Source: a phage. From it: DNA of 64,000 bases. The DNA lies in assembly GCA_024449565.1 (NCBI GenBank), contig GCA_024449565.1_4810.1, one strand, 5' to 3'. The translations under genes and the position numbers were made by a program. Of this stretch, positions 395 through 5,902 are shown in pieces; position 1 is the stretch's first letter; every line of letters begins with the position of its first letter. Below the pieces are notes generated by a model. That model was not told the DNA's origin. It ran no database searches and saw only the letters and a list, made by a program, of their open reading frames with translations.

Positions 395-1246
395 TCAGAT
401 AATTGGTATTTTCCTGCACTTGCAGTGTATTGCCCATCCAGGAGGACCGATGTCACCCTTTTTGAACTTAAGTTCTCCACCTACTTCCCATAAGCGTTTG
501 TCATCAAGCTTGAATCTCATGCCGTCGACGTGCTCATGTGATATTCGCGGCTCTTTGCCTGCTCCTGAATGCGCCCACTCAAATTCCTCAACGCCATTCT
601 GTCGCATTCTTTCATCACTTAATACGCAATAAAGTTTGCTCGTTTGGTCTTTGGCGATAAGGTCTACGCGTTTTGCAGAGAAGTGTTTTACATTCCTTAA
701 TGCCGCCTGAATGCCGGACGTGCCTTGCTGGGCTGGGTCAGGCGAAGTCAGCGAAAGCATGACTGCTTCGTACACTCTGTTGTGAATATCCTCGCCGACC
801 TTAGTAACTAGAGTCGTGTTAAACGTCTCGCTTGTTCTAAGAGTGTTCTCAACGAATTTGTTATATGTGGCCTTTGGCGCTTCTATGCCTGCGGACTTAA
901 GGCTTGCGAATGTAGCAGAAGTCGCACCCTTTTCAACTGACTTGATGAAATCTGCGGCGATCTTTGACCCGACACGTGCGAATGCCTTTGCCCATTTCAG
1001 TTGAAGTCGCTTCATCAAGGTCTGAAAAGTTGAATCAGCAGAGTCTTGCGCAAAGAACTTTTTCACCTGCTTCTTTTCAAGCCATTCTGCAATTCCTTCT
1101 TGATAATCATCAATCATCGCATAGCAAAGACCTTTCATCTCACGACGATAGGCCATCGCAATAGCGTTGGATGGGATTATCGGACTGCCGCGCCCGATTC
1201 TATCGGGTGAGCGGCGTTCACGTTTTTTCGAAGCTTTAAAAGCCAT
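395..1246 (-). CDS. head morphogenesis protein (Mu F / SPP1 gp7-like)
   Basis: Immediately downstream of portal; C-terminal HCKC motif resembling the NCRC signature of the Mu F family; start trimmed to ATG MAFKASKK at 1246. Confidence 0.65.
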   Translation of the reverse strand: MAFKASKKRERRSPDRIGRGSPIIPSNAIAMAYRREMKGLCYAMIDDYQEGIAEWLEKKQVKKFFAQDSADSTFQTLMKRLQLKWAKAFARVGSKIAADFIKSVEKGATSATFASLKSAGIEAPKATYNKFVENTLRTSETFNTTLVTKVGEDIHNRVYEAVMLSLTSPDPAQQGTSGIQAALRNVKHFSAKRVDLIAKDQTSKLYCVLSDERMRQNGVEEFEWAHSGAGKEPRISHEHVDGMRFKLDDKRLWEVGGELKFKKGDIGPPGWAIHCKCRKIPII

Positions 1247-1247
1247 A

Positions 1248-3623
1248 TCAACCTTGCTTCGGTGAATTAGTAGGATTATTGAGTGCTCCATATGCTTGAG
1301 AGCAATCACCTTTCAACCACTCCTTGAATGAGTTTACATCTAATTCATGGATTGAATCGAATCCGTTCCAACCGTTACCAAATGATGCCTGATAAGCTTC
1401 TTTCGCTTCTTCTGCTGAATCGAATCCAAGCATACACTTGTGCTCATCAAATTCACCAGAATAATTATCATTTTGGTTAACGATGAATACTTTAGGAGAC
1501 TTCATATTTGGGCCAACAAAACAGTCGACTTCATCACCATCAGCACCCTTGGTGCCTTTGATGAATCCGTAGTGGTGCGGCATTTTGACTGCCCATTCAC
1601 CATCAAGGCTGTTACCCCTACGAATGCTGTTGCGAGGATTCTCGATGCCAAGGATCATCCCGTGCAACTTCATCTTAGGCAGCGACGCGGCATCCATCTT
1701 CCCTACGTTGTGGCGTAAGTTGATGACGTGTCCTTTAACGCTTGGAAGGGTAGACGGTTGCACCGACCGTGAATCTTTTTGAGGGTCAAAATCCACATCC
1801 TGACCCTCTTTCAGGTAGTAATCCGCAATACCCTCCAGACCTTCTTTCAACTGCGTTAGGACATCAACCTGATGGCTTGATTCATCATCGGTATCGTCCA
1901 TGTTGATTTCGACAGGCGCTTTGTCAGGGTTTTCCGCCAACTCACCACGCGCGGCACCCTCTGGCATAATACCTGTTTCGCTATAGAACTGGCCGCCCAT
2001 CTTAACGACATCAGCTTTCGCCTGTTCAATAGCGGCCTTACCTTGCAGGACTTCACCAGCAGACTTGCCAAGCAATGCCATATTCTCTGGAGACATCCCT
2101 GGGGTTTCTTCTGCTGCGTCTTCCGGCAGACGGTTGTAGCCGCTGTTTTTGTCGTCTTTGATGCGGTCGCGCTCTTCATCAGGAGAAATGACGCCAGCAT
2201 CAATAAGAGTTTTGCCAGTGTTGGCTCGCTTATCATTGATTTCTGCAAGTTGAGTAGCAGTAAGTGAGCCAACTGGTTCCCATGCAACCTTAACATCGAC
2301 GTCCACCCCTTCTGATTTGAGAAGGATTTTGTAATGGCGGTCGAGAATTTTTGTCAGGTCATGCTGCTGGCACGTTTCCAACTCTTCGTGATAGCTGACC
2401 ATCTCGAATTCACCAGTGGCGTTAAAGCCTTTTGGCGAAGTCCCAAGCAGTTTGGTCGACGGAACTTTTGCGATTGCGGCCACAAGCTGGTACTGGTTCA
2501 TGATGATACTGTCGAAGTCTGACAAGTTGATGTCAAACTGGTCCATCTCTTCTTTTTGGCCAAGCACTTTGACTGCATAGTTGTCGCGGTACTTGATCCA
2601 CATCATCAGACGTTCTGCAAAAGACCGCTCATTGGCAATAGCCTTGTCAACGTCGGTCCGCAGCGTCGTTGTACGCTTGGACATCGCCAGCAATGGCGCT
2701 TCGTTAGCGGTACGTTCAGCGGCATAGATGCGTTCATAAATCTGCTGAGTCAGAGGAATGCCGCCGTAAATATAAGTCGGCTTGAGAATATCAGCTGGCT
2801 CATCATTGCGCAAGATGATGAGGTGACTTCGATGATAACGTTGTCCGCTGATCACCCAGTATTCTGGATCATAGAAGTGCTGTGATGCAGGGTCTGCGGT
2901 ATTTTCAGACGTCAAAAATGGCATCATCCAATAAGGGTCAACCTGAATGATTCCCTTATAAGACCCCTTTGTCACACCATCAATGTTAAAAGGCTTGCTG
3001 TAATATTCTGGGTCATCGCTACGCACATCAAATATGATGACGCGGATACCAAAAATATTTTTGAATCGTTCGGCTTCAACTAAGTGCTCTTTGATATTAA
3101 ATTCTTTATCAATTTGCTTTAGGCGTTCGCTTGCCTGCACTGACAATTCTGACTCAGAACTGGATTTGACTTCCCAACCTTTACGGACCGCATCGCGGCC
3201 TACCATGGAACACGCCTTGTTCACCAGCCAATGCTGTGCGATGATGGCACAAGCTTGATAGCCGATGAATGACTGTGACAAATACCAGTTTTGAAGTTGA
3301 ATAGGTACTGTGTATGGGTTGACCTGCCCTTCTGAACTAATGTTCTTTAAGGCATTGTCCATAACTTTTTTGGATACTGTTGCGGAATCGACTGAACGGC
3401 CTTTTATGATAGCAACACCGTCGCCATTAATATCAGGCTCATATAAAGGGAAGTCATCAACCGTTTTAAAGGTCGGTCGATTGCTTTCAGTCTTTTCCCA
3501 GCGTTGACCGCTGCCGCGCCTTTCAAGGCGTTCAAACGGTGCCAATGGGTCGCCTGGCGGCATCTCCGCTGGTTCGGCTTCTGGTTGCGTCTTCTCCCAG
3601 AGTTTTATGCCAAGAATTTTCAT
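1248..3623 (-). CDS. portal protein with C-terminal inorganic-pyrophosphatase-like domain
   Basis: Large ORF between terminase and Mu F-like gene; ATG at 3623 with AGGTGG SD (track ORF begins at an upstream TTG); C-terminal about 190 aa contain MPHHYGFIKGTKGADGDEVDCFV and AEEAKEAYQASF, matching the family I pyrophosphatase core. Confidence 0.6.
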   Translation of the reverse strand: MKILGIKLWEKTQPEAEPAEMPPGDPLAPFERLERRGSGQRWEKTESNRPTFKTVDDFPLYEPDINGDGVAIIKGRSVDSATVSKKVMDNALKNISSEGQVNPYTVPIQLQNWYLSQSFIGYQACAIIAQHWLVNKACSMVGRDAVRKGWEVKSSSESELSVQASERLKQIDKEFNIKEHLVEAERFKNIFGIRVIIFDVRSDDPEYYSKPFNIDGVTKGSYKGIIQVDPYWMMPFLTSENTADPASQHFYDPEYWVISGQRYHRSHLIILRNDEPADILKPTYIYGGIPLTQQIYERIYAAERTANEAPLLAMSKRTTTLRTDVDKAIANERSFAERLMMWIKYRDNYAVKVLGQKEEMDQFDINLSDFDSIIMNQYQLVAAIAKVPSTKLLGTSPKGFNATGEFEMVSYHEELETCQQHDLTKILDRHYKILLKSEGVDVDVKVAWEPVGSLTATQLAEINDKRANTGKTLIDAGVISPDEERDRIKDDKNSGYNRLPEDAAEETPGMSPENMALLGKSAGEVLQGKAAIEQAKADVVKMGGQFYSETGIMPEGAARGELAENPDKAPVEINMDDTDDESSHQVDVLTQLKEGLEGIADYYLKEGQDVDFDPQKDSRSVQPSTLPSVKGHVINLRHNVGKMDAASLPKMKLHGMILGIENPRNSIRRGNSLDGEWAVKMPHHYGFIKGTKGADGDEVDCFVGPNMKSPKVFIVNQNDNYSGEFDEHKCMLGFDSAEEAKEAYQASFGNGWNGFDSIHELDVNSFKEWLKGDCSQAYGALNNPTNSPKQG

Positions 3624-3728
3624 TGTTAACGCCACCTGACAGTGAAAGGGAATCAATCTATATTATAAATATTCATGTGTTTGTAAGCAAATGATATGTA
3701 TGGTGATCATAAATAGTTCATAAAATAT

Positions 3729-4441: not shown

Positions 4442-5902
4442 TTAAAGGTTAGAGAAGAAGCCGGATGCTGCAACAATTGGTTTCATCAACGCCATGATTG
4501 CTGCGTCCGCTTTGTTAGGCGATTTGACTCCACGCTTTGCCATATCCTTTTTCGATTCAACTTTAAACTTACCAAGCACAGACGTGTCTTTGCGCGGCGC
4601 TGACATCTCAAAAAGAAATGTCTCAATTTCTTCCGCAGACCAAGCAGGAATCCCAAGTTCTGGAATGCCGTCTGTGTCGATGGAAATCAGCTCATCAGTC
4701 GGGTATACGGCCTGCCCTGTTGCATACTCATATGTCTTCCTGAATCGTTCGGCAATCTCAGTCCATTTTTGCGCTTTTATGTTTGCGAAATGGTCTTTAT
4801 TGAGTATTTCAACGTGTGGTAACTCAAGGAAGACGTCATCAGGATCATCAACAGCACCTTGCGCGTTGAACGCATTAAATTCGATTCTTGGGAATGTTGG
4901 ATTTTCATGGATTGCATACTCATTAAGCTCATCAAATTTTGAACCAGCAAATGCACCAACACCGATGGCGTCATAGGTAATTGATGCGCCGAATGTTAAT
5001 GCATCTTTCCAAACTCCGCTTGCGGACTTAAGCAATTCATCTTCCAGACCTTCCCATGTCTTGATGCCGCGCAATACGTTGCCCGTGACAAATGCTGTGG
5101 CGTTTAAGTCGTCGCCGTCGTCCGCCACGTCGAAGCCTATACGGTTAGACCCTGACAAGCTCCATCCCAGCGTAGGGTGTTTGTGGAGGTTTAGCGCGGC
5201 TTTGACGAATGCACGGTTGATTACAGATTTGTCGCCGCCAGTCTTCGGAACGCCGCCATAAACGTGCTCTGCCTTTTTTGGGTCGCGCTCGTACATGCCT
5301 GCGATAACGTCCAGCATTGTTTGCGACAAGAATGGATTATCTTGCCAGTTTATCTTTTTAACAATGGCATTCTTCGGCGGTCGCATAACAAAGTTCTGGT
5401 AGACAAAATCGGCCTCTTCATCAGGGTTAAAGATGATCCATATTTCTGACCCTTCTTTACGGATTGTTGGCTCAATAATGTCCCACTGTTCTTCAGTAAG
5501 CGCGTGCGCTTCTTCCAGCCAAAGTACGTCAACACCTTCCGTTGATTTGATTTCATCAACATTACGTGCGATACCATAAAATAGAAATTCAGATTTAGTT
5601 CTTTTATGTTCGATAGAGTTCTTTAATAAATTGAACTCATCTTTGAAATCAGAAATTTCTATTTTGTCTTTTAATAGAGTATATACAGATTCAGAAATCT
5701 TGTTCTGGAATTGTCGAACGCAAAGGAATTTTAATTTGAAGTTTGCCGCCAAATAAATAGCAAAACCAGCGGCATCATGCGATTTGGAAGATGCACGACC
5801 GCCGTATATTACTTTGTATCGCGCTTTCGTCTTCCAGACTTCTTTTAAAGCAGGATTCAACTGGTACATGACTTTCCAATTATGTGTTAGTATTTTATTC
5901 AT
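4442..5902 (-). CDS. terL: terminase large subunit
   Basis: Walker A GGRASSKS near N-terminus, ATPase plus nuclease two-domain length (486 aa), position upstream of portal. Confidence 0.9.
   Translation of the reverse strand: MNKILTHNWKVMYQLNPALKEVWKTKARYKVIYGGRASSKSHDAAGFAIYLAANFKLKFLCVRQFQNKISESVYTLLKDKIEISDFKDEFNLLKNSIEHKRTKSEFLFYGIARNVDEIKSTEGVDVLWLEEAHALTEEQWDIIEPTIRKEGSEIWIIFNPDEEADFVYQNFVMRPPKNAIVKKINWQDNPFLSQTMLDVIAGMYERDPKKAEHVYGGVPKTGGDKSVINRAFVKAALNLHKHPTLGWSLSGSNRIGFDVADDGDDLNATAFVTGNVLRGIKTWEGLEDELLKSASGVWKDALTFGASITYDAIGVGAFAGSKFDELNEYAIHENPTFPRIEFNAFNAQGAVDDPDDVFLELPHVEILNKDHFANIKAQKWTEIAERFRKTYEYATGQAVYPTDELISIDTDGIPELGIPAWSAEEIETFLFEMSAPRKDTSVLGKFKVESKKDMAKRGVKSPNKADAAIMALMKPIVAASGFFSNL

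Follow-up and report, generated by a model that had tools for sequence, protein, structure and literature searches.

The portal protein of an Escherichia coli Wifcevirus phage ends in an InPase domain homologous to family I pyrophosphatases

The stretch of phage DNA analysed here (the window; 64,000 nucleotides (nt) of contig GCA_024449565.1_4810.1, assembly GCA_024449565.1) belongs to a PB1-like E. coli myovirus of the genus Wifcevirus, and its DNA is 93-96% identical to ECML-117, WFH, WFC, FEC19, vB_Eco4M-7, Mansfield and 23 other records. In this study, the gene at 1248..3623 on the minus strand was found to be a single frame of 791 codons, closed by a TGA stop at 1248..1250, whose product consists of the following three portions: a portal core, an acidic linker of ~110 amino acids (aa) and a C-terminal InPase domain. 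That this fusion is real and that the domain belongs to Pfam family PF18823 is, in our judgement, nearly certain. The domain is a trimmed homolog of the family I pyrophosphatases (PPases) in which the predicted metal-binding carboxylates D695, D697, D700 and D726/E727 are retained, and it is translated and present in virion preparations of near-identical phages. With a probability of roughly 55%, we consider it a metal-dependent phosphohydrolase that is packaged in twelve copies and used early in the next infection.

Both the domain family and the portal fusion are already known, because they are covered by Pfam PF18823, PHROG 4660, UniProt names and the work of Iyer, Burroughs, Anand, de Souza and Aravind (2017, J Bacteriol, PMC5512222), who defined the InPase domain in phage polyvalent proteins and reported portal fusions, naming BcepF1.124. 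The portal of the window itself falls within that family, with the same conserved acidic residues and a predicted compact fold like that described; it differs from it in no essential way and represents the Wifcevirus ortholog. The present analysis adds to the 2017 study selection figures, an AlphaFold model with fold matches in the PDB and a re-reading of virion mass spectrometry (MS). Its value is therefore that of a well-supported experimental lead, not of a new kind of biology.

A continuous portal-InPase gene

A preliminary description of the window, made from its letters, had placed a pyrophosphatase-like domain at 1248-1820, which is the 3' end of the long minus-strand portal open reading frame (ORF). 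Both segments that it quoted are present in the product, YGFIKGTKGADGDEVDCFV at aa 685-703 (window 1515..1571) and AEEAKEAYQASF at aa 737-748, and the frame between portal and domain is uninterrupted, as it had stated. The mechanically called ORF extends over 1248..3656 with a TTG start and encodes 802 aa; the true start codon is an ATG at 3623, preceded at a distance of 8 nt by the ribosome-binding site AGGTGG (3632..3637, minus strand), and from there the gene has the same length as the annotated one in six Wifcevirus genomes. Moreover, a ribosome-binding site is annotated at the equivalent position in phage Mansfield. The 33 nt between TTG and ATG (3624-3656) would add 11 codons (LIPFHCQVALT), for which there is no ribosome-binding site and which are annotated in none of the relatives.

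Read from its N-terminus on the minus strand, the protein begins with a region of 121 aa (3261..3623) that precedes the Pfam portal domain, followed by the portal core at aa 122-468 (2220..3260), which matches PF06381, Phage_portal_3, with 296 bits and E 3.4e-88. The portal crown and barrel helix occupy aa 469-539 (2007..2219), where the alignment with the solved portal 8fvh ends at about aa 539 and AlphaFold places a helix at aa 512-539. The acidic low-complexity linker, delimited by composition and by a low predicted local distance difference test score (pLDDT), covers aa 540-648 (1680..2006), and the InPase domain, with its compact family I pyrophosphatase-like fold, covers aa 649-771 (1311..1679). 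A C-terminal tail of low pLDDT (aa 772-791) and the stop codon complete the gene (1248..1310). PHROG 4660 matches the whole fusion in one piece, from aa 27 to 788 of the 802-aa mechanical ORF. The identity of the protein as a portal is supported by its homology to PF06381 and by its position, with a terminase gene upstream and a MuF-like gene beginning 1 nt past its stop codon.

In-frame stops and frameshifts were sought in independent genomes, and none occurred among seven: the window and the six Wifcevirus relatives have the identical ORF length of 791 codons with zero indels, and the window portal is identical to ECML-117 gp34 at 788 of 791 aa. The suspicion that portal and pyrophosphatase-like protein are two genes joined by a sequencing or assembly error (a frameshift or a lost stop) had been raised only by the odd architecture and by inconsistent database annotations of the gene ('minor head protein', 'hypothetical protein'). 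No data in its support were found, and its chance is practically nil, being ruled out by the seven-genome comparison, in which six independently sequenced relatives keep the same 791 codons despite 516 synonymous differences in the domain, and by MS peptides that tile the linker continuously between both halves; furthermore, the orthologous Pbunavirus portals of 765 aa share the layout, and PHROG 4660 spans the entire fusion.

Virion proteomics, which the preliminary description had named as a check, was available in published form for two near-identical phages. Necel et al. 2020 (PMC7048862) subjected preparations of vB_Eco4M-7 and ECML-117 to shotgun MS, and their supplementary tables contain peptides from every portion of the portal, from the N-terminus to the C-terminus. 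In these two Wifcevirus relatives, the N-terminus yielded peptides from aa 12-32 and 45-53, six peptides fall within the linker in the ECML-117 data, and six lie in the InPase domain, including the catalytic-motif peptide GADGDEVDCFVGPNxK. Both proteomes also contained the last tryptic peptide, GDCSQAYGALNNPTNSPK (aa 772-789). Because these peptides cover the domain to the C-terminus, it is made and is present in the virion preparations. A natural cleavage site at TGIMPEGAAR (aa 550-559), a peptide that seems semi-tryptic against the window, was considered and rejected; vB_Eco4M-7 has K549 in place of E549, so this is an ordinary tryptic peptide.

Fold, active-site residues and conservation of the InPase domain

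The domain matched PF18823 with 157.5 bits (E 2e-46; cut-off 26.8) over model positions 12-135 of 135. The profile of the classical family I PPases, PF00719, in contrast scored 18.2 bits with the whole protein and 20.8 bits with the domain alone, below its cut-off of 23.5, and its match was restricted to a 26-residue motif; the profile search proposed earlier thus bore out the relationship through the InPase family and not through the classical one. Structure prediction had likewise been proposed. A domain model, built by AlphaFold from the same alignment of 68 homologs used for the conservation analysis, reached a pLDDT of 85.7 and a predicted template modelling score (pTM) of 0.80, with pLDDT above 90 across the domain, and it displays the PPase beta-barrel fold. 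All 50 of the Foldseek matches listed were family I PPases (best E 1e-4), and a profile search of PDB sequences retrieved the Pa193 portal and then PPases only.

Alignment of the family profile with E. coli PPase by hhalign gave a probability of 94% and E 1e-7 and paired Y685, D695, D697 and D700 with Y55, D65, D67 and D70, so that the match to the family I core claimed by the preliminary description was confirmed. The E. coli sequence used is identical to that of 1faj, and its numbering was confirmed through the D65N, D97N and D42N mutant entries. The paired residues belong to the core motif that runs from Y685 to V703 (1515..1571, minus strand), whose codons were read directly. The alignment is confident only over aa 677-704; its flanks are of low confidence because the PPase profile is shallow, all sequences listed when homologs of E. 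coli PPase were searched for having at least 82% identity. Nevertheless, E661, R668, Y685, G686, D695, D700, D726, E727 and K729 are invariant in all homologs whose sequence extends over the position concerned (66-68 of the 68), and the position of D697 is acidic in 64 of 68. The window protein has all of the family-invariant residues. In the low-confidence part of the alignment, E661, R668, D726/E727 and K729 follow the order and lie on the strands of E20, K29, D102 and K104, and Q717, N718 and D719 are candidate counterparts of D97. In the classical PPases, the counterparts of the retained residues would make up the metal site and the electrophilic-phosphate site.

The preliminary description was also right that the fold is shortened, since equivalents of R43 and of the segment ~110-153 of E. 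coli PPase, which comprises helices A and B, are apparently absent. In comparison with the family I PPases (PF00719, EC 3.6.1.1; PDB 1faj/1i40), the InPase domain has ~125 instead of 175 residues, and it possesses an extra C-terminal strand and helix; the family I enzyme is a free cytoplasmic oligomer, whereas the InPase domain described here is fused to a virion protein. Iyer et al. (PMC5512222) had described the compact fold as lacking a beta-hairpin that is present between core strands 1 and 2 of all solved PPases.

The suggestion that the shortened domain may be degenerate did not hold. With differences summed over the 21 pairs formed by the window and its six relatives, 516 synonymous and 46 non-synonymous differences were counted in the domain, and the ratio of non-synonymous to synonymous rates (dN/dS) was 0.015, as compared with 0.007 in the portal core and 0.028 in the linker. 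A degenerate remnant is ruled out by this value together with the retention of all invariant residues. The domain is carried by 471 phage records, and a search of 1.84 billion cluster representatives returned 11,269 matches at E<=1e-3 and 9,396 at E<=1e-10, many of them in proteins of 2,000-6,400 aa. To judge from these sequence matches, the domain typically has this short form throughout a very large family.

Position in the capsid and possible function

The portal core is homologous to the solved portals of two Pseudomonas phages, Pa193 gp19 (9b41, E 2e-250) and E217 gp19 (8fvh, E 2e-189). These Pbunavirus proteins are full-length orthologs (E 2e-250) with the same order of core, barrel, linker and InPase domain, and the HHYGFIKGTKGADGDEVDCFVGPN stretch is identical in both; they differ from the window protein in the host (Pseudomonas, not E. 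coli), in length (765 vs 791 aa) and in a divergent linker. By cryo-electron microscopy (cryo-EM), which demonstrated the dodecameric ring for the Pseudomonas phage orthologs only, the portal was modelled for residues 94/97-528 of 765. About 93-96 N-terminal residues were invisible, residues 529-765 had no density, and the helix of the C-terminal barrel points into the head. The counterpart of this invisible C-terminus in the window protein is aa ~540-791. Neither the E217 nor the Pa193 paper mentions a pyrophosphatase-like domain, and it appears that the cryo-EM literature on therapeutic PB1-like phages has overlooked it.

By analogy with E217 and Pa193, whose portals have their C-terminus directed into the head, the linker and the domain should lie inside the capsid, where twelve flexible arms, every one tipped by an InPase domain, would stand above the portal. 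They are probably too mobile to be visible by cryo-EM. In the AlphaFold prediction that includes the linker, pLDDT was below 50 over aa 482-642, with the exception of the barrel helix and of a helix at ~582-602. This second helix, at aa ~582-602 of the linker, is amphipathic and semi-conserved. Linker length and sequence vary widely among diverse portal fusions and between genera. That the linker is under purifying selection within the genus (0.028) while being predicted to be disordered and hypervariable between genera suggests that it does more than act as a spacer.

The following course of events is proposed. The portal core would build the dodecameric DNA channel, with the linker following the barrel helix, and the InPase domain would act as a divalent-metal-dependent phosphoanhydride hydrolase that is made late and packaged with the DNA. 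As the next infection begins, it may clear inorganic pyrophosphate (PPi) or destroy a nucleotide-derived host molecule. A tether of ~110 aa measures ~40 nm when fully extended and cannot span the ~150-nm tail, so action in the host cytoplasm would require that the domain be released from the portal by proteolysis. Iyer et al. 2017 (PMC5512222) had proposed packaging and injection, followed by PPi clearance, which relieves product inhibition of polymerases, or by an attack on nucleotide-like molecules that the host makes in response to infection. The parts of this proposal are not equally probable. The domain is probably catalytically active; its release into the host is somewhat doubtful, and plain PPi as the substrate is a rather doubtful assumption, a different or broader substrate being favoured by the residue pattern.

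The contexts in which the domain recurs are consistent with packaging and injection, as far as gene content and domain order can indicate. InPase occurs in thousands of non-portal contexts, both standing alone and within giant multi-enzyme polyvalent proteins, and matches in PHROG and BFVD place it in DarB-like, "mega" and virion structural proteins, including a PHROG family labelled 'DarB-like antirestriction'. Among metagenomic proteins, the portal-InPase fusion is extended by an ADP-ribosyltransferase exoenzyme toxin domain (PF03496) in P0125 (1191 aa) and by a bacterial-type topoisomerase IB (PF01028 and PF21338) in P0128 (1106 aa), and P0123 has two InPase copies. At locus L007 (4289-8699), a DarA_N protein of 954 aa is followed by a gene of 284 aa, the end of which is overlapped by a standalone InPase gene of 232 aa; with holin and LydB genes upstream, the arrangement resembles the lydAB-darA operon of phage P1. 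Another standalone gene lies between portal and capsid genes, and at a further standalone locus (L009) the neighbourhood was uninformative. A GmrSD_N gene is also located near the L007 genes, on the other strand. The association of PF18823 with virion proteins is seen here as well, in a portal fusion within the head module and in the peptides from virion preparations of relatives. MuF-toxin fusions, DarA/DarB of P1 and Alt of T4 are likewise late-expressed enzymes that are joined to head components, or packaged along with them, and serve in the next cell. The carrier is different here, being the portal, a fixed structural ring, from which release would therefore need cleavage.

Several observations weigh against the proposed reading. 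Shotgun data cannot tell whether the domain remains attached to the portal, a few non-structural proteins were likewise present in the preparations, and the portal peptides observed were all fully tryptic, with no cleavage site seen. The correspondence with E20, K29, D102 and K104 is based on residue order and invariance and not on a confident alignment. No counterpart of R43 was found, G675 standing opposite to it in the low-confidence hhalign alignment, and, by the same alignment and the domain length, the segment ~110-153 with Y141 and K142 has none either. R43, Y141 and K142 are phosphate-binding, and the residues without counterpart are mostly those that hold the leaving-group phosphate in E. 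coli PPase; PPi may therefore not be the substrate. A literature search on the domain name returned the 2017 paper alone, with no activity measurement or biochemistry of PF18823, and the exit of the domain from the capsid is a proposal that goes beyond these data.

A more far-reaching version of these events, which we regard as unlikely, would make the portal a platform for effector delivery: the InPase domains would be cut off by the prohead protease or at ejection, expelled with the leading DNA end, and in the newly infected cell would hydrolyse a host immune signal or alarmone and not PPi. The combination of a retained metal and electrophilic-phosphate site with an apparently lost leaving-group site would fit such a nucleotide-derived substrate. 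If this were true, it would be the first portal shown to carry an active, injected counter-defence enzyme, and a function would be given to the 237 C-terminal residues that are invisible in the therapeutic Pbunavirus portals.

It is less probable still that the domain is a non-catalytic structural module that stays on the portal, an old enzyme fold put to new use inside the capsid, for instance in binding Mg2+ or DNA phosphates, in organising the first or last DNA end at the portal, in sensing headful pressure or in aiding procapsid assembly. Such a role would agree with the covalent tether to a structural protein, in twelve copies beside the packaged DNA, with the MS peptides, in which no cleavage site was detected, with the missing counterparts of R43, Y141 and K142, and with the linker dN/dS of 0.028, which suggests a role for the whole C-terminal arm. 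However, the residues conserved across the 68 homologs are catalytic metal ligands and residues of the general acid/base type, and in the thousands of non-portal contexts a structural role tied to the portal would be meaningless.

Similarly improbable is that the domain, as an active enzyme on unassembled or assembling portals, serves the producing cell by clearing PPi (or a nucleotide by-product) late in infection and so drives DNA replication and late transcription, its presence in the virion being incidental. The portal is a late protein, of which more than the 12 copies assembled per virion are presumably made. Moreover, the relief of polymerases from product inhibition by PPi clearance (Iyer et al. 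2017, PMC5512222) would suit such a role. On the other hand, this reading gives no reason for a fusion at the capsid-facing end of the portal, and it leaves aside that relatives append host-directed toxin domains (ADP-ribosyltransferase) at the same position and that the InPase family is associated with packaged, injected proteins. In addition, E. coli has a highly active essential PPase of its own. Both this and the structural role account poorly for the conserved catalytic residues in non-portal contexts and for the appended toxin domains.

With 9,396 cluster representatives at E<=1e-10, and on the portals of PB1-like phages used in phage therapy, the domain is a widespread component of phage particles, which would be clarified by identifying the substrate hydrolysed and the exit from the capsid. 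The cryo-EM studies of the PB1-like therapy phages have left the C-terminal third of the portal unexplained.

Neighbouring genes and other features of the window

The gene downstream of the portal (395..1246, minus strand) matches PF04233, Phage_Mu_F, with 30.9 bits against a cut-off of 29.6 and is annotated as 'head morphogenesis' in the relatives. The head and packaging module to which both genes belong also includes, upstream, the gene for the large terminase subunit (4442..5902, minus strand; PF04466, Terminase_3, E 3e-37). Scans of the window for tRNAs and Rfam families gave no match, nor did the PADLOC defence models, and NCBIfam gave a sub-threshold portal-family match only.

At 341-394, the window has a 54-nt AT-rich stretch in place of a whole 921-nt 'head fiber'-like gene (PF11133; ECML-117 gp36, WFH gp023; compare L004, 340-1259). 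In the six relatives inspected, this gene lies between the MuF-like gene and a gene for a 45-aa membrane protein, and, judged by a shared alignment gap of ~866 bp, it is presumably present in all 29 Wifcevirus records; its product was detected by virion MS in relatives. The junction at 341-394 is present in no record of the phage collection. Furthermore, an imperfect inverted repeat at ~73-153, in an intergenic region, surfaced as reverse-strand BLAST matches; its arms are roughly cgcgtatcatccgtatcatccgta and tacggatgatacgtcattatacgcg, it is kept in phage WFH, and it may be a terminator or a regulatory hairpin.
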